From a virus (Duplodnaviria > Heunggongvirae > Uroviricota > Caudoviricetes), in IMG/VR virus record IMGVR_UViG_2861043448_000001: a stretch of DNA of 22,628 nt; one strand, 5' to 3'. The notes under the pieces were generated by a model. That model saw only the letters and a list, made by a program, of their open reading frames with translations. It made no database searches and was not told where the DNA came from. Below, in pieces: positions 6,336 to 15,971 of this stretch. Position numbers and translations under genes: made by a program. Within the stretch, counting starts at the first letter, position 1. Each line of letters starts with the position of its first letter.

Positions 6336-6403
6336 CGAGATTAAAGTGCATTAGTTCAGATGCAAATTGACATTTTGTGGCACAGGGTAGAGCTAGCGTG
6401 GTT

Positions 6404-6427
6404 GTCCGCTTTGTGCCAAGAGCGGAC
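6404..6427. repeat. 24-bp hairpin element, copy 1 (GTCCGCTTTGTGCCAAGAGCGGAC)
   Basis: Near-identical to the copy at 7619-7642; 9-bp stem, 6-nt loop; lies about 40 bp outside the 3' end of the GIY-YIG gene. Confidence 0.5.
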
Positions 6428-6464
6428 TTTGCAAAATGGGGGTTATTTCAATCAAAACGTAACG

Positions 6465-7409
6465 TCACAACCAGCCGACGCTCTCTCGCCATTTATAATT
6501 AGTAACTTTATCATTTTCGCTTATTTTTTTAGATATAGAGCGCGGCTCTCTTCCTAGATACTCAGATATTTCTATCGGGGACAAATCAAAATCAACAAGC
6601 ATGACTCTAAGTTTTTCCATTTCCTTTAAAGTCCAAGGCTTGCCATAATTTTCATAAAGAGATACCTTATGCTCCCTGATAGTTCGCTTTCTCTGAGTTT
6701 CACTTTCCCTCTGAAAAATCTCGCTTTTAAATTGTGAACGGAACTCTTTACAGAAGTTGTTATCAGTTTTTTTGTTATATAGATTGCTAAAAATAAGCTG
6801 GGATGCCGGGTCTAAATCAGGTGTGTTAATAATGAAAACTTTGACCTTTTCCATATAGGGATATTCAATTTTACCCAATATGCTTAATTGCTTTATATTA
6901 AAAAAACCTCTCAAATCAAAAGATTTAATGAGCTTTGATTGGATTACACTTTCAATCCTGCTTGCATTTAAATAACAGTACTTTGCCATTGGAAGGGCCC
7001 ATACTACCAGTTGAGGAATATATTTTTCTAATGCAATGCTCTGCCAATCAGTATCAAAGGTTTGGCTTTTTGCTAGCATGTTTTTCGGCAAATCAGAATA
7101 CATTGTGGTAGATGCCCATATCTTATAATCATTCGCCAAGGCTTGATAGTATTTTGTGTGGTTATGAATTTTATAAGCTGACATGAAGCGATAAACGTCT
7201 TCGTCGTGACCAGCGTCGTAAATTGTTCGATTTCCTCTAAGATAACCGTCGTAATGTTCGGTTATCCTTCTACCTACATTACAACTTACCCCAACGTAAA
7301 CCACACGACTGAAAAGTCCTTTATGGACAATAAGATAAACTCCGCTACAGCCAGATTTCCTGGCCTCTGATAGAGAACCTAAAAATCTCCATTCCATAAT
7401 TAAATCCAT
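6465..7409 (-). CDS. GIY-YIG nuclease-domain protein (314 aa) with uncharacterised C-terminal region
   Basis: N-terminus CSGVYLIVHKGLFSRVVYVGVSCNVGRRITEHY fits GIY-x(about 12)-YVG ... R ... E spacing of GIY-YIG nucleases. The gene is markedly AT-rich compared with flanking phage genes. Confidence 0.75.
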   Translation of the reverse strand: MDLIMEWRFLGSLSEARKSGCSGVYLIVHKGLFSRVVYVGVSCNVGRRITEHYDGYLRGNRTIYDAGHDEDVYRFMSAYKIHNHTKYYQALANDYKIWASTTMYSDLPKNMLAKSQTFDTDWQSIALEKYIPQLVVWALPMAKYCYLNASRIESVIQSKLIKSFDLRGFFNIKQLSILGKIEYPYMEKVKVFIINTPDLDPASQLIFSNLYNKKTDNNFCKEFRSQFKSEIFQRESETQRKRTIREHKVSLYENYGKPWTLKEMEKLRVMLVDFDLSPIEISEYLGREPRSISKKISENDKVTNYKWRESVGWL

Positions 7410-7579
7410 AATTATTGCTACTGTTTTTGTTTATCATTATTTTCGTGAAACTTCAACAATTTTATCCAAAAGCTAAGGGCAAAGACTTATATAATTATAC
7501 TTGTCATCGTTAGCGATTATATAGAGTAGTGGCGCTGACCTGCTCCCTGGTGATTCACACAGAATGCTGTTAGTAATGT

Positions 7580-7642
7580 CCGTTCCTCGCTCTCAGCGGA
7601 CCTTCAGCTCAGTGATATCGTCCGCTCTGTGCAAAGAGCGGA
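7580..7642. repeat. two tandem hairpin elements (GTCCGTTCCTCGCTCTCAGCGGAC and GTCCGCTCTGTGCAAAGAGCGGAC)
   Basis: Second unit is a perfect 9-bp stem with 6-nt loop and matches the copy at 6404-6427; located in the 547-bp spacer between the GIY-YIG gene and the 449-aa gene. A further CCGCTCT-containing imperfect dyad occurs near 7760-7790. Confidence 0.45.
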
Positions 7643-7956
7643 CGTTGGTATGCAAGAGCCCTCCAAAAGTTGATGGTTGGTTTGCAGGGGGGCTTAAAGA
7701 AACTGCACTTATCAAGTTGAAGTTCTGTATTCAGCGAAATCGTAGCACTCTGACGATAAGTAACTCCGGTACTCCGCTCTTCGATGAAGAACCAGAGTAA
7801 TCCCCCCGAAAAACCAGCGCATCAAAATTGGATCTTCAGCGGTAGCTTATCGGCTATCGGAAGTACAGGTGTGGATTCGTGGTGAATTGCTTTGATAATA
7901 AACGATTAATACGGAAAAACGCATTAATCATTTATTAGCTTTTAGTAAACCACAAT

Positions 7957-9306
7957 TTATTCCGTTTTACATATCATAGTAGTCGATTGGAGAATATAGT
8001 TTCTGGGAATGTACTCTTCAAAGTGTTCGTCCTTTTTAAATACATGAACTACATTTGGGAATAATTGATAGTCAACAGGGTGTATAGCGTTTGGATTATG
8101 GTACATGTACATGGCTGTACACCATGGTTCTTGATAGTTAGGGTCACTTACATCGGCTGAAAATGGATGTGGGGCTGCATCCTGATCAGTTTTAACACCA
8201 CTGACGTACACTTTGAATCCACTCGCCTCTACACCTGCAAGAATTCCCATCCGGTTAAACTTAGGTATGGTTGCTTGAGTAGTGAGTAAAACGGCAGAAA
8301 CATAATTATTTTGTTCTGAGCCAAAAAAGTTCGACTTGATACTTCTATTTTCATCTGTATGTCTTTCAATAGAAATGCCTGACTCAATATCAATCCCGTA
8401 CAAATAGCTATGCAAGGCTTCGCTTGAGAAGGCCATGGACATTCTTTTTGAATAATCCTGCATTGCTATGACAAATGGTTTGTTCTTTGTATGGTTGAGT
8501 TCCCAGTAATGAACTTTCTCTGGCTCAGGGCAATGCCGGACTTTTTTTAATAAACTTCTTGCAAACTTAAAAGGCATGACATTTAGAACATGTTTTCTTA
8601 ATTCATCCATCTGTTCATCGTTAATGACTTTTCTTTCAAGAGGGGCTTCTGCTTCAGCAATGCTTACAGCCTCTACAGCAATTTCCACTCCAAATTTAGA
8701 TAGCAGAAAATCTGGTTGATTGTATTCTCTATTCATTTCAAAGTCGAGTTCATAAAATACAGCGTTCAAATATAATTCAAATAACCTTGAATTAAATGCA
8801 TCACTTTGAAAATCCCTTATAAATATTCCATCAGGATCTTTGAACCAGTATGCAAGTTCCTCAAGAACAATATATGCAGGGAAATGAAGAGGGTCTTCGA
8901 GGAGCATTTTTATATAAACATTCCTTTTTTTCGCTGGGACCTTACTCAAGAATAATGAAAAAGGTTTGGTTGATTCATCGCCTTGCATGAATGTACCATT
9001 TTGGTGCTGCGCCAGCATCTTTGGTATGTCATCGTTCAAATTATTAAGCAAGACATCCATTGAATCAAATGAAGCCAAGACGTTTATTGCTCTGAATTTT
9101 TTATCTAAATCCCGACCTAAGACTATTGCGTTAAAATCTTTATCAATATTGCATATGATTATTGTGGATAACAATGTTATCCCATTCCCCTCATATTTAA
9201 ACCAGCGTATCTCCTCAGAAAATGTCTTAAGGTAAGGTGAGCGACCGTAAAAATAAATATCAAATTGTTCTTTGCTGATCTCACTGAAGTGTAATCCTGC
9301 GTTCAT
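7957..9306 (-). CDS. hypothetical protein (449 aa), no recognisable domain
   Basis: Long intact ORF with AAGGA SD 7-11 nt upstream of the ATG; AT-rich; same strand as the adjacent GIY-YIG gene. Confidence 0.7.
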   Translation of the reverse strand: MNAGLHFSEISKEQFDIYFYGRSPYLKTFSEEIRWFKYEGNGITLLSTIIICNIDKDFNAIVLGRDLDKKFRAINVLASFDSMDVLLNNLNDDIPKMLAQHQNGTFMQGDESTKPFSLFLSKVPAKKRNVYIKMLLEDPLHFPAYIVLEELAYWFKDPDGIFIRDFQSDAFNSRLFELYLNAVFYELDFEMNREYNQPDFLLSKFGVEIAVEAVSIAEAEAPLERKVINDEQMDELRKHVLNVMPFKFARSLLKKVRHCPEPEKVHYWELNHTKNKPFVIAMQDYSKRMSMAFSSEALHSYLYGIDIESGISIERHTDENRSIKSNFFGSEQNNYVSAVLLTTQATIPKFNRMGILAGVEASGFKVYVSGVKTDQDAAPHPFSADVSDPNYQEPWCTAMYMYHNPNAIHPVDYQLFPNVVHVFKKDEHFEEYIPRNYILQSTTMICKTE

Positions 9307-9428
9307 ACCAATTCCTTTTCAATGAATAATTGGCCTTTAGGAGTGATTCCCTTTGTCTTTAATTCAGTTCTAACTAGTTCTTTAATCCAATAGCCTAAGC
9401 TCATCATGCAGTTGGATCATAAGACAAC

Positions 9429-9457
9429 GCCCTATAGTGCTCGTGATACTATAGGGC
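9429..9457. promoter_or_regulatory. perfect 10-bp inverted repeat with 9-bp spacer (GCCCTATAGT-gctcgtgat-ACTATAGGGC)
   Basis: Seen directly in the divergent region between the 449-aa gene and the recombinase gene; geometry resembles an operator or recombinase core site. Confidence 0.35.
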
Positions 9458-9590
9458 ATCTGACCACACTGTTAACTGGAGTAACGACTATGGCAGGAAT
9501 ACAGCATAACCAAACTCACCCCAAACTTACATAGCGCTTTCTGGCCGTGAGCATAACAAGGTCCACTCCTCGCTCATAAGGGACAACCAT

Positions 9591-9623
9591 ACTCAAATCT
9601 CCCACATTGCAGGAGATTTGAGT
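9591..9623 (+). promoter_or_regulatory. perfect 12-bp stem-loop sequestering the recombinase ribosome-binding site
   Basis: ACTCAAATCTCC-cacattgca-GGAGATTTGAGT; the AGGAG SD (9611-9615) lies in the loop/3' arm junction and the ATG (9624) follows immediately. Confidence 0.45.
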
Positions 9624-10226
9624 ATGAACACGTCACCGTGGAACAAAGACCGTATCATAGGCCAAAAAAGACCACTTCAGATATCTCATATCTGGGGTAT
9701 CCGAATCCGACTTGAACTGGAAGGTAAAACTCGCGATTTAGCTCTGTTCAACATGGCCCTGGATAGTAAGCTTCGAGGCTGTGATCTGGTCAAACTCAAA
9801 GTATCTGATGTTGCATATGGTGGCTCTGTTTCAAGCAGAGCAACGGTGTTGCAACAGAAAACCGGTAGCCCTGTTCAATTTGAGATAACCAAAGGGACAA
9901 GAGAAGCTGTTGCTGCATTGATACAGCTTAGCAATTTGCACAGTAAAGACTTCTTGTTTCGGTCTAGGGTCGGAACTAACCAGCACATTTCAACCCGGCA
10001 ATACAACCGAATCTTTCATGGGGGGGTAGAAAAGCTTGGTCTCGAAGATTCGCTTTACAGCACACATTCCATGAGAAGAACAAAACCTTACCTGATCTAC
10101 AAGAAAACCAAGAATCTCCGGGTGATCCAACTTCTGTTGGGTCATAAGAAACTGGAAAGCACAGTCCGTTATCTGGGCATTGAAGTCGATGATGCGTTAG
10201 AGATTTCTGAATCGATTGAAGTCTAA
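9624..10226 (+). CDS. small tyrosine recombinase, catalytic domain only (FimB/FimE-sized, 200 aa)
   Basis: Catalytic signature ...LRGCD (Arg-I) ... HSMRRT ... LLGH ... TVRYL (Tyr nucleophile). No N-terminal arm-binding domain. The track ORF begins at TTG 9618; ATG 9624 with AGGAG 8 nt upstream is preferred. Confidence 0.8.
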   Translation: MNTSPWNKDRIIGQKRPLQISHIWGIRIRLELEGKTRDLALFNMALDSKLRGCDLVKLKVSDVAYGGSVSSRATVLQQKTGSPVQFEITKGTREAVAALIQLSNLHSKDFLFRSRVGTNQHISTRQYNRIFHGGVEKLGLEDSLYSTHSMRRTKPYLIYKKTKNLRVIQLLLGHKKLESTVRYLGIEVDDALEISESIEV

Positions 10227-10585
10227 GGTTGTCAGGGCTGCAACAGCAGCCCTGTGCCATAAGCGGAAGTATTTAACAACTATCAGTGTTGTTCAACAGA
10301 TAAAGGGGCACTTGATTTTTTCTGTTCTCAGGAAATGATAAAAGCGCGTCGGTTCAAGCCTGCTTAACGGGAGTTTGTTAATCCTGTTGCCGTGACGTTT
10401 TGACACCATTATGATGGGGAGACACTTAATGTATGAAGGTTCCGCCACTTATACCTGTCCAACAACTGCCTCGGATGTTTCTTTGTATGAATAAGTGGTA
10501 ATGAGTAGTGAATCGCTAACAGTCACCCGAACAATCGGTGCCTGCAATTAATTCTATATTCTAAACGAGGGGGAGATTATTACAC

Positions 10586-11566
10586 ATGAAATTTAAGGAC
10601 AAGAACCTTAAGGCTCTCGCGGAATGTATCATAGGAGATAATAAGGCATTTCTGTATCGTTCAAGCAGTCACATCACTGAATTTTTCCAGGACTGCGGCA
10701 TGGATGTTACTCATGACGGATCCACTCGGTGGAAATGGACGGCCCAGAGGCTTGAAGAACTTCTTTATGAGCCACAGTCAAAGCCACATACTTTGCCGGA
10801 AAGGTTTGTTCATGTGCTCAGAACTTTAATGTTAAAAGAAGATGCAATGGATGACGATCCAGGAAGATTAAAGGCGCTTGAAGAACTGAACAAGCCTTTG
10901 ATGCGGGAAGGCTATGAGGCATTCTATGGTGACGATCGCCTTTTGTATATACGCCATACCGATACCAAAACGGTTTCAGTCAGTAATAACCCTCATCGGC
11001 CCTTAACGCCTCACGAAGTAGAATGCAGAAGGTTACTGACCGCGTTTCTTGATACCTGCTCAGAAGATGAGTTAATAGAAGATATTCTCCTTCCTTTATT
11101 CCGGCAACTTGGTTTTCACCGGATAACAGCAGTGGGACATAAAGATAAAGCGCTGGAATACGGGAAAGACATCTGGATGAAGTTCACACTGCCAACTCAG
11201 CATGTTCTTTATTTCGGCATTCAGGCAAAAAAAGGTAAGTTGGATGCGTCCGGTGCCAGCAAATCTACGAATTCAAACGTGGCAGAAATCTTCAACCAGG
11301 TACTGATGATGCTTGGCCATGAAATATTTGACCCAGAAACAAATAGAAAGGTGCTGGTAGATCATGCCTTTATCGTTGCTGGCGGAGAAATTACTAAACA
11401 GGCGAGGAACTGGCTGGGCGGGAAACTTGATGCCAGCAAAAGAAGCCAGATAATATTTATGGACCGGGAAGACATTCTTAATTTATATACTGTAAGTAAT
11501 GTACCTCTGCCAACAGGTGCTCTCATCTCTGATGATGCCGTTAAGAACGATGATATTCCTTTCTAA
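10586..11566 (+). CDS. protein with C-terminal Mrr-like PD-(D/E)xK nuclease motif and unknown N-terminal domain (326 aa)
   Basis: Strong SD (GAGGGGGAG). C-terminal half ...HRITAVGHKDKALEYGKDIWMKF...LYFGIQAKKG... resembles the Mrr catalytic core (D ... Q-x-K). Confidence 0.7.
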   Translation: MKFKDKNLKALAECIIGDNKAFLYRSSSHITEFFQDCGMDVTHDGSTRWKWTAQRLEELLYEPQSKPHTLPERFVHVLRTLMLKEDAMDDDPGRLKALEELNKPLMREGYEAFYGDDRLLYIRHTDTKTVSVSNNPHRPLTPHEVECRRLLTAFLDTCSEDELIEDILLPLFRQLGFHRITAVGHKDKALEYGKDIWMKFTLPTQHVLYFGIQAKKGKLDASGASKSTNSNVAEIFNQVLMMLGHEIFDPETNRKVLVDHAFIVAGGEITKQARNWLGGKLDASKRSQIIFMDREDILNLYTVSNVPLPTGALISDDAVKNDDIPF

Positions 11567-11993
11567 TCAGAAGTACGTCTTTTTCTGAAAGAATACGTGA
11601 TAGGTAGCCACACCACACCTTTAGTGACCCCTTAATCTGGTAATATAACAGCCCGTATGAATGTCCGCGGCATCGCGGGCTGAAATTTATTAAAAATACT
11701 TATTCATCAAGCTGGAGTAGTTTGCCGAGTAACTGTAAACGCCCAACTTAACCGGACCATTCACTTTTAGATTGCTACCAGCAAACCAACTTCCGTTTCT
11801 CGCTCAAAGCGGACTAGAAGGTTAGCTTGCGTCGGACTTGGCGTATTTAAAGAAGTGCTGGTGGTAACTGGTTGTTGTGTTCCATTTCTACAAAACAAAA
11901 TCACAGAAACTATACCCAATAGTTATATTGAATCAATGATGAGACAGCCTCATATTTATCAGAACTGGTGTACGTCCAATACAGGAGGTTGTC

Positions 11994-12083
11994 GTGCTGG
12001 TTCTCAAATATGCGCTAGCTATTGCGGCTGTAATGGCAATTTATTGTCTTGCTATTGTTCTTACGGATCGCCTTTCTGATTGA
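11994..12083 (+). CDS. putative small hydrophobic peptide (29 codons, GTG start)
   Basis: AGGAGG SD 6 nt upstream of GTG; translation VLVLKYALAIAAVMAIYCLAIVLTDRLSD is one predicted TM helix with a short polar tail, like type I toxins. Lies just upstream of the hok promoter region. Confidence 0.25.
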   Translation: MLVLKYALAIAAVMAIYCLAIVLTDRLSD

Positions 12084-12237
12084 TTTTATATTGGCGAGGT
12101 GACGGGAGTTAAGTAGAATTGCTGCGGGTGCTTGAGGCTATCTGCCTCAGGCATGAACACCAAAGGCAGATAGAGAAAAGCCCCAGTTAACATTACGCGT
12201 CCTGCAAGACGTTTAACATTAATCTGAGGCTCAATCT

Positions 12238-12450
12238 ATGAACGGCAAATCTAGGTTAGCCTCTTACGTGCCGAAAGGCAAGGAGAAGCAGGCTATGAAG
12301 CAGCAAAAGGCGATGTTAATCGCCCTGATCGTCATCTGTTTAACCGTCATAATGACGGCACTGGTAACGAGGAAAGACCTCTGCGAGGTACGAATCCGAA
12401 CCGGCCAGACGGAGGTCGCTGTCTTCACAGCTTACGAACCTGAGGAGTAA
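12238..12450 (+). CDS. hok: Hok/Gef family type I toxin with in-frame Mok leader (hok proper = 12295..12450)
   Basis: MKQQKAMLIALIVICLTVIMTALVTRKDLCEVRIRTGQTEVAVFTAYEPEE is a near-match to Hok/Gef toxins; in-frame upstream extension from ATG 12238 as in chromosomal mok; candidate promoter TTGGCG-17-TAGAAT about 12097-12125. Confidence 0.85.
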   Translation: MNGKSRLASYVPKGKEKQAMKQQKAMLIALIVICLTVIMTALVTRKDLCEVRIRTGQTEVAVFTAYEPEE

Positions 12451-15661: not shown

Positions 15662-15737
15662 GGCCCTTTAGCTCAGTGGTGAGAGCGAGCGACTCATAAT
15701 CGACAGGTCGCTGGGTCAAATCCAGCAAGGGCCACCA
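15662..15737 (+). tRNA. tRNA with CAU anticodon (Ile2/Met type, ileX-like)
   Basis: Cloverleaf read by eye: acceptor GGCCCTT/AAGGGCC, anticodon loop CUCAUAA, T-arm GCUGG-GUCAAAU-CCAGC, 3' ACCA. Close to E. coli ileX as recalled. Confidence 0.85.
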
Positions 15738-15738
15738 A

Positions 15739-15815
15739 CCGTCACCAGTTCATCAGGAAAGAGCGTCAACCCTTTAAGTTGAGTGTGCGAGGTTCGAGTC
15801 CCCGGTGGCGGTCCA
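15739..15815 (+). tRNA. atypical tRNA-like gene (anticodon loop CCUUUAA; identity uncertain, possibly degenerate)
   Basis: 77 nt with acceptor, D, anticodon and T arms, but C at positions 8 and 33 and an A-C mismatch in the T-stem. Confidence 0.4.
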
Positions 15816-15817
15816 GT

Positions 15818-15893
<76 letters not shown>

Positions 15894-15896
15894 TAT

Positions 15897-15971
<75 letters not shown>

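Follow-up and report, generated by a model that had tools for sequence, protein, structure and literature searches.

Gene locus and features

The window analysed here is a stretch of 22,628 nt (IMG/VR record IMGVR_UViG_2861043448_000001) that represents a Qin-like defective lambdoid prophage located between rspB and ydfJ of E. coli. Its sequence is identical to that of NZ_CP031653.1 and many similar genomes. The subject of this report is a gene at 10586–11566 that encodes a 326-amino acid (aa) protein, WP_023147794.1. An N-terminal domain is followed in this protein by a divergent nuclease domain of the Mrr type and, at the extreme C-terminus, by a short acidic tip that resembles the C-terminal peptide (SSB-Ct) of SSB, the bacterial protein that binds single-stranded DNA. 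The features of the gene and of its immediate flanks are as follows.

10445–10585, + strand: upstream region that travels with the gene, aligned to the upstream sequences of the Pantoea, Leclercia, Pseudescherichia and plasmid copies
10586–11566, + strand: complete open reading frame (ORF) of 326 aa with an ATG start; RefSeq WP_023147794.1, "hypothetical protein", of an uncharacterised conserved family
10586–10984, + strand: N-terminal domain, aa 1–133, predicted as five helices and a beta-hairpin, with no family assignment
10985–11500, + strand: Mrr-type PD-(D/E)xK nuclease domain, aa 134–305, assigned from motif and predicted fold
11063–11065, 11168–11170, 11222–11224 and 11228–11230, + strand: putative catalytic residues E160, D195, Q213 and K215, respectively
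11501–11542, + strand: variable, Pro-rich, flexible linker, aa 306–319, with low column conservation and a low predicted local distance difference test score (pLDDT)
11543–11563, + strand: SSB-Ct-like acidic tip KNDDIPF, aa 320–326, at the extreme C-terminus, assigned from the endings of relatives
11649–11682, + strand: stem-loop with an A/U-rich stretch after it, on weak evidence a possible terminator for the gene (−17.5 kcal/mol, z −2.3)

The gene is real and stands alone. A ribosome binding site, GGGGAG, is present at 10570–10575, 10 nt before the ATG, and the region 10445–10585 presumably holds a putative promoter and 5′ untranslated region of the gene's own. A homology search with the protein returned 3877 homologues at E ≤ 1e-3, the best at 3e-218; thus the ORF is far beyond what chance would produce. 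A word-index-free search gave 1169 cluster representatives at 50% identity. The protein itself has no match among the Pfam, NCBIfam, PADLOC and PHROG models, nor in the PDB by sequence.

Homologues in many phyla show 60–90% identity over the full length. Full-length proteins of 324–345 aa that are 60–75% identical to the E. coli protein are found in Gamma-, Beta- and Alphaproteobacteria, Actinomycetota, Acidobacteriota and Cyanobacteria, as well as Planctomycetota, Verrucomicrobiota, Bacteroidota, Desulfobacterota and Bipolaricaulota. A profile made from divergent members brought in a more distant subfamily, ~40–48% identical. Metagenomic members of this subfamily with tails ending in EPPF have a G+C content of 59–63%. 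The spread is sporadic, with at least 225 loci among 185,579 species (one genome per species), or ~0.1%. Within E. coli the gene is present in 190 of 5426 complete genomes, 187 of the copies being at least 99% identical, and it occupies the same prophage locus in every E. coli record shown. Carriage in E. coli is essentially that of one clone. One E. coli genome, NZ_CP185933.1, has an IS3-family insertion sequence inside the gene; therefore loss of the gene is tolerated.

A divergent Mrr-type nuclease domain

The C-terminal part of the protein displays the motifs G193-K-D195-I-W-M-K-F200 and F210-G-I-Q213-A-K215-K-G217, which an earlier note, made from the sequence alone, had read as a PD-(D/E)xK motif of the Mrr type. 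In an alignment of 104 sequences that reaches down to ~40% identity, E160, Q213 and K215 do not vary, and conservation is at least 90% for D195, H185, E191 and G193. The E...D...(Q)xK arrangement is the canonical one, with the second acidic residue replaced by Gln as in Mrr.

When only close homologues were used, the C-terminal half of the AlphaFold model was poor. The AlphaFold2 model made from the 104-sequence alignment has a mean pLDDT of 84.4 and predicts a helix at 160–174 that carries E160, a strand at 196–201 in the D195 region, and a strand at 207–215 that carries Q213 and K215. The alpha-beta-beta-beta-alpha-beta core fold of restriction endonucleases is present in this model, together with the catalytic signature of an acidic residue in helix 1, an Asp where strand 2 begins and, within strand 3, (D/E/Q)-x-K. 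The top structural matches of the model are the FokI cleavage domain (score 7.5), AspBHI (7.3), LlaBIII (7.0) and MspJI (6.4), with BspD6I, PaqCI, Cdn1, Hna, Cap4, Avs4, HindIII, NucS, Hjc, Upx and Shedu below them. Every listed match has the PD-(D/E)xK restriction-endonuclease fold, and the best are of the Mrr type. Compared with the PDB, the family profile gave only FtsZ-like matches, none of them significant (E ~0.1).

Evidence from relatives points the same way as the fold. In a Pfam scan of the 104 members Mrr_cat is the sole recurrent family (22 of the 104 at E ≤ 1), and two members, P0331 with 21.6 bits and P0387 with 21.2 bits, just exceed the Mrr_cat cutoff of 21, over profile positions 3–112 of 115. 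As judged by transitive homology through such relatives and by the predicted fold, the C-terminal part is confirmed as a divergent Mrr-type PD-(D/E)xK domain, and the residues quoted in the earlier note are present and conserved. This domain would be expected to cleave DNA. It is of the type found in the Mrr_cat proteins, i.e., EcoKMrr, AF1548 (PDB 1y88) and the nuclease domains of LlaBIII, MspJI, AspBHI and Avs4, but it is too divergent for the Pfam model or for a direct match to E. coli Mrr.

An exchangeable N-terminal module

The earlier note had also described the first 170 aa as having no recognisable fold. It is correct that no domain is matched there at the sequence level, but the unassigned domain is shorter, ~133 aa, and residues 140–175 make up helices one and two of the nuclease domain, which carry the conserved E160/D161. 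Several relatives (P0128, P0132, P0139, P0150, P0172, P0179, P0232 and P0255) keep the region ~135–326 and have unrelated N-terminal domains attached to it. Thus the domain boundary lies near residue 133, and the N-terminal module is exchangeable. Structure prediction, which the earlier note had proposed for this region, did reveal five helices and a hairpin, but it gave neither a family nor an SRA-like or winged-helix reader. The predicted domain is an all-alpha bundle with a hairpin and has an isoelectric point of 5.95; structure comparison yielded no SRA, winged-helix, PUA or YTH match, and a search of a viral fold library yielded no match. Comparison with death-fold domains (DD/CARD/PYD, bacterial death-like domains among them), whose fold is a six-helix antiparallel bundle, gave no clear assignment. 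The module may be a regulatory, sensor or oligomerisation part.

This domain bears on whether the protein could be a classical type IV modification-dependent enzyme, in which the N-terminal domain would read 5-hydroxymethylcytosine, its glucosylated form or N6-methyladenine, the Mrr-like domain would cut, and the tail would be incidental or modulatory. The closest folds do include the modification-dependent AspBHI and MspJI and the Mrr-type AF1548, relatives match Mrr_cat, and the gene is single, with no methyltransferase partner. In addition, the neighbouring gene in the window is a homologue of PD-T7-1, which protects best against T-even phages (PMC9519451). However an all-alpha bundle with a hairpin, a near-neutral isoelectric point and no match to an SRA, winged-helix, PUA or YTH domain is not what such an enzyme would be expected to carry at its N-terminus. 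Mrr has a winged-helix reader and MspJI and AspBHI have SRA-like readers, whereas the domain described here is neither, and by its predicted domain architecture the protein is not a type IV enzyme. The type IV explanation would also leave the conserved, lineage-tracking SSB-like tip unexplained, and it is considered unlikely.

A C-terminal tip that resembles the SSB tail

In the family alignment a conserved core gives way to ~14 Pro-rich residues of low conservation, after which comes a conserved acidic tip that ends in Pro-Phe. Mean column conservation is 0.29 in the linker, 0.61 in the tip and 0.57–0.69 in the domains. A PF ending is present in 219 of the 249 full-length relatives, and 184 of the 249 end in an acidic residue followed by x-PF, the commonest ending being DDDIPF. 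The tip has the form of the SSB-Ct motif, i.e., an acidic stretch and (I/L/V/P)-P-F at the extreme C-terminus after a flexible linker. The layout is that of the bacterial SSB tail, in which a variable Pro-rich linker also leads to an acidic tip ending in Pro-Phe-COOH.

SSB tails differ between bacterial lineages. DDDIPF is the SSB-Ct hexapeptide of E. coli (PMC5872125), and the E. coli SSB tail is WMDFDDDIPF (PMC3575820). The R. sphaeroides SSB-C7 is LDDEIPF, which is common to 5795 alphaproteobacterial assemblies (PMC13490951), and the Firmicute-type SSB tail is DDDLPF (PMC5531588). For M. smegmatis the SSB-Ct used for comparison was GADDEPPF, taken from the literature. The same lineage variants, FDDDIPF, LDDEIPF, DEPPF and DDLPF, are found in the present family. 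Many gamma- and betaproteobacterial copies end in FDDDIPF, as does E. coli SSB, or in FDEDIPF, and alphaproteobacterial copies from Rhodobacterales, Stappiaceae, Hoeflea and Cohaesibacter end in LDD(D/E)IPF, as does the SSB of R. sphaeroides. All 10 of 10 actinobacterial copies end in [P/A/T]PF, e.g., SDEPPF and RDEPPF, as does the SSB of M. smegmatis; this ending is found in 0 of ~58 other PF-ending copies (Fisher p ~3e-12, a value inflated by shared ancestry). The tip is also kept in the relatives that have other N-terminal domains, e.g., P0128 with IDDLPF, of the Firmicute type, and P0132 with PPPF.

The protein is not an SSB. There is no oligonucleotide/oligosaccharide-binding (OB) fold in the model, no SSB match was obtained in Pfam, NCBIfam or the PDB, and no homology to SSB extends beyond the last 6–7 residues. 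As judged from these residues, the tip is a short-linear-motif mimic, one that varies with host lineage as SSB-Ct does, and it would be expected to bind SSB partners. To our knowledge no Mrr-type protein with an SSB-Ct tip has been described, and none was found in a literature search. A search of the literature on the family accessions and on SSB-tail mimics on nucleases likewise gave no relevant description; its coverage was incomplete and earlier work may exist.

A tail of this kind could have other uses. It might be a protease degron that limits a toxic nuclease, or an acidic pseudo-substrate that would fold back onto the DNA-binding face of the nuclease itself and act in cis-autoinhibition, as in SSB, T4 gp32 and T7 gp2.5. 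An acidic disordered tail after a linker is the architecture of autoinhibited single-stranded DNA (ssDNA)-binding proteins, and the tail of WP_023147794.1 matches that layout. The position of the gene beside toxin-antitoxin modules on plasmids would suit either use, and a degron is compatible with the covariation of tip and host SSB-Ct. The C-terminal motif of S. mutans SSB is reportedly recognised by ClpXP (PMC5143411). Cis-autoinhibition, however, offers no account of why positions −3 and −7 should change with the SSB-Ct of the host lineage. Because acidic cis-autoinhibition needs no tracking of host SSB-Ct variants, the tip is read here as a mimic that would engage the pockets of SSB partners. 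A degron or cis-inhibitor is considered improbable.

Mobility and neighbouring genes

To characterise gene neighbourhoods, 1046 neighbour ORFs from 80 loci in different species were clustered all-against-all. No conserved partner gene was detected among the 80 loci, and neighbours are common to a few close genomes at most; the view in the earlier note of a stand-alone, single-gene unit is borne out. A scan of 134 non-redundant immediate neighbours, four integrases among them, gave 127 Pfam families. An apparent pattern of a large (700–980 aa) same-strand upstream gene was followed and rejected, as these are unrelated proteins (ValRS, aconitase, RpoD, CHAT-TPR, a helicase and a STAND NTPase). 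A minority of neighbours are defence genes, i.e., AbiL, PtuA/AriA-like ATPases, a CBASS 2TM effector, a SAVED protein, MzaA and PDC candidates. One distant member, P0366, with the tail PEEPPF, has a 4-bp overlap with the stop of QatD in a QatA-QatC-QatD locus that looks complete (locus L087, 5173–11032), and it may be co-transcribed with this QatABCD locus.

The gene is found on 47 plasmids, 25 of them conjugative. On the two plasmids examined, an E. coli IncF and a Klebsiella IncFIB plasmid, the gene lies in an accessory region directly after vapBC, and on the IncF plasmid ccdAB and prlF-yhaV are also near. The distance from same-strand vapBC (PIN) to the homologue is 140–160 bp at loci L082 (8218–8861) and L083 (8205–8842) (CP055750.1, NZ_CP107353.1), and likewise in the Leclercia and Pseudescherichia loci (L003/L004), with the homologue downstream. 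This recurrent association is not conserved outside Enterobacterales. Approximately 140 bp upstream of the gene are kept across Pantoea, Leclercia, Pseudescherichia, E. coli IncF and Klebsiella IncFIB copies, next to other upstream genes, and ~190 bp of the 3′ flank, including the terminator-like hairpin, are common to the window, Pantoea and Leclercia. The gene thus travels as a single-gene cassette that brings along its own expression signals.

In the window, a PD-T7-1 homologue of 449 aa is encoded at 7957–9306 on the − strand (PADLOC E 7e-157), divergent from a small integrase gene that lies between it and the gene under study. As a defence gene PD-T7-1 has been validated by experiment, and it occurs in islands and prophages (PMC9519451). 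The protein encoded at 7957–9306 also matches PD-T7-5 (3e-40) and phrog_8571, and it is "hypothetical" in RefSeq. The adjacent PD-T7-1, the vapBC and other toxin-antitoxin genes on plasmids, the QatABCD locus and the minority of defence neighbours make up a context compatible with defence, the role that the earlier note had suggested.

The same context bears on a role in housekeeping. The protein might be an accessory repair or fork-processing nuclease with no immune function, recruited by a C-terminal hub-binding peptide in the manner of NucS/EndoMS, a PD-(D/E)xK repair nuclease that has a C-terminal clamp-binding peptide. The present family differs from NucS/EndoMS in its hub peptide, an SSB-Ct tip and not a beta-clamp/PCNA motif, and in its N-terminal domain; NucS/EndoMS is a core gene, whereas the present family is sporadic and on mobile elements. 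A repair function is at odds with presence in only ~0.1% of species genomes and in one E. coli clone, and with location on plasmids, islands and a prophage hotspot, often beside toxin-antitoxin or defence genes. Relatives carry other N-terminal domains in its place, and swaps of this kind are typical of conflict systems. A non-immune repair nuclease is accordingly given a small chance of being the right description.

Single-protein combinations of a sensor with a PD-(D/E)xK nuclease are likewise represented by Shedu SduA, Upx, Hna and the Cap4/NucC type. In its proposed mode of action the protein would resemble single-protein nucleases of the Mrr or Shedu type. The present family differs from these in having no PADLOC match, a much higher conservation and a different N-terminal domain, and they lack an SSB-like tail. 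The END nucleases (PMC12191111) were also considered as a counterpart and set aside; their architecture is different, in that the nuclease is joined to an EndoIII domain that is inactive.

The remaining cargo on both sides of the gene was also surveyed. A 314-aa ORF at 6465–7409 on the − strand, between a DUF977 gene and PD-T7-1, is matched by neither Pfam nor PADLOC and only marginally by PHROGs. This uncharacterised hotspot gene is contained in a low-G+C (35–40%) cargo block at ~6400–9500. Directly downstream of the gene under study is a hok/sok type I toxin-antitoxin locus (12126–12300 and 12238–12450, + strand), with sok at 111.7 bits in Rfam and the toxin gene being hokD. Thus the cargo block spans from the replication-region genes to hokD. 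An Rfam scan around the gene for known RNA elements gave only sok, further downstream. Four tRNA genes follow an antiterminator gene at 15662–15971 (+ strand) and are assigned by ARAGORN to Met(CAT), Lys(TTT), Thr(TGT) and Gly(TCC); RefSeq has only three tRNAs there, Ile, Thr and Gly. The gene with the CAT anticodon is presumably of the Ile2 type, labelled Ile by RefSeq.

The adjacent small integrase

The integrase coding sequence (9624–10226, + strand) specifies a tyrosine recombinase of 200–202 aa that consists of the catalytic domain only. The gene described here begins 360 bp downstream of it on the same strand, and it does therefore stand just after a small recombinase, as the earlier note had said. 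That note went on to raise the possibility of phase-variable expression switched by the recombinase. The recombinase is of the size of FimB/FimE and is weakly matched by models of tyrosine-type DNA invertases (NF007371 at E 2e-6, which falls far short of the cutoff), and its position 360 bp upstream, on the same strand, would suit such a switch. The genome comparisons do not agree with it. Inverted repeats in 9300–12300 are only short or imperfect and at about chance level, with none convincing that bracket 10227–10585, and the 179 of 179 E. coli genomes that have both integrase and gene are collinear, the gene being in one piece in all except the single genome in which IS3 splits it. The two also occur independently. 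The integrase unit (~9562–10270) is present at 90–95% identity in ~750 other E. coli genomes that lack the gene, and tblastn detected the integrase in none of the 80 other loci of the gene, whose own 140-bp upstream region is kept in integrase-free contexts. Phase variation by this recombinase is thus very improbable.

A perfect 15-bp inverted repeat at 9588–9626 is predicted to form a hairpin that sequesters the ribosome binding site and start codon of the integrase (free energy −23.5 kcal/mol, z −6.0). A GC hairpin at 10233–10254 (free energy −22, z −4.9) is located just past the integrase stop codon, and homology to other integrase copies ends there. These hairpins may serve in the control of translation or as sites of recombination.

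The B2-type strains that were examined have the integrase unit flanked by a candidate defence gene, HEC-08/DUF3644, which is divergent, and by an ETEC_3214 gene, which is unrelated. In ATCC 25922 the HEC-08/DUF3644 gene and dynamin-family genes are on one side of the integrase and the ETEC_3214 gene is on the other. This arrangement suggests that the integrase may mark a hotspot of cargo exchange or of defence. The recurring layout is that of a defence gene, then the small integrase, then a variable gene, and gives mild guilt-by-association for the gene described here.

Proposed mechanism

On balance we lean towards a constitutively encoded single-protein nuclease that would be docked, through its mimic of the SSB tail, to SSB-interacting proteins and that is probably defensive. 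Its most likely biological role would be to defend the cell against invading DNA or to keep such DNA out. Genome maintenance in bacteria has SSB-Ct as its universal docking peptide, and phage recombinases are known to depend on this peptide. In E. coli the SSB-interacting replisome, restart, recombination and repair enzymes include Pol III chi, PriA, RecQ, ExoI and RecO. The Mrr-type domain would cut DNA with E160, D195 and Q213-x-K215, and the exchangeable N-terminal domain would regulate, sense or oligomerise. The tip would dock into the SSB-Ct pockets of SSB-interacting proteins of host or phage; such docking may place the nuclease on ssDNA-containing intermediates of replication or recombination of the invading DNA, or may switch the nuclease on. 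A one-gene cassette with its own upstream region would carry this activity between plasmids, islands and the prophage hotspot described here.

Several observations weigh against this proposal. With regard to the nuclease, the protein itself has no Mrr_cat (PF04471) match at E ≤ 1 in Pfam, and no significant match was obtained when the family profile was compared by hhalign with E. coli K-12 Mrr as a single sequence. With regard to the tip, the Acinetobacter copies have none at all, and the enterobacterial tip KNDDIPF has lost the Phe at −7 and one Asp. The match of tail to lineage is clade-structured and so represents few independent events, and the host SSB tails used are published ones from representative species and do not come from the genomes that carry the gene. 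A C-terminal (D/E)-x-PF could also serve another purpose, e.g., as a degron or in cis-autoinhibition. With regard to defence, conservation is unusually high for a defence gene (60–75% identity across phyla), and no PADLOC-DB v2 family (including Shedu, Upx, PD-T7-x, HEC and PDC candidates) is matched at E ≤ 1. Defence-island enrichment appears modest because many neighbours elsewhere are housekeeping genes (valS, aconitase, rpoD, gatB). Finally, no match to the family was found in the 50,697 phage genomes searched; it should be noted that the earlier note would have abandoned its proposal on a match to a housekeeping or phage-replication family, and no such match was found.

The Acinetobacter copies (L048–L050 and L053) are 312–316 aa in length and have a fixed place after the aconitase gene in four species. 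They look like a domesticated, tail-less lineage.

A more elaborate form of the docking proposal, which is tentative and rather doubtful, takes the tip as bait, i.e., as a guard decoy. Phage or plasmid proteins that seize SSB-Ct would capture the bait and so release or assemble the nuclease. The captors would be single-strand annealing recombinases, or replication or anti-recombination factors.

Significance

The fold of the protein and the idea of a stand-alone nuclease are ordinary. What is surprising is the high conservation across phyla combined with an SSB-Ct tip matched to lineage. If the tip is bait, immunity would sense the hijacking of the SSB interactome and not a feature of the nucleic acid. 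Were the tip instead simply to park the nuclease at forks, on the SSB partners of the host, this too would be a new principle by which a restriction-like enzyme is targeted. On a conservative reading, the gene is a candidate single-gene module of defence or exclusion in a validated prophage hotspot beside PD-T7-1. The family has thousands of members in most bacterial phyla, some of them on plasmids from clinical lineages of Klebsiella and E. coli. A functional tail would represent a new way to aim or trigger a nuclease via the SSB interactome, and would provide a function for this uncharacterised family.

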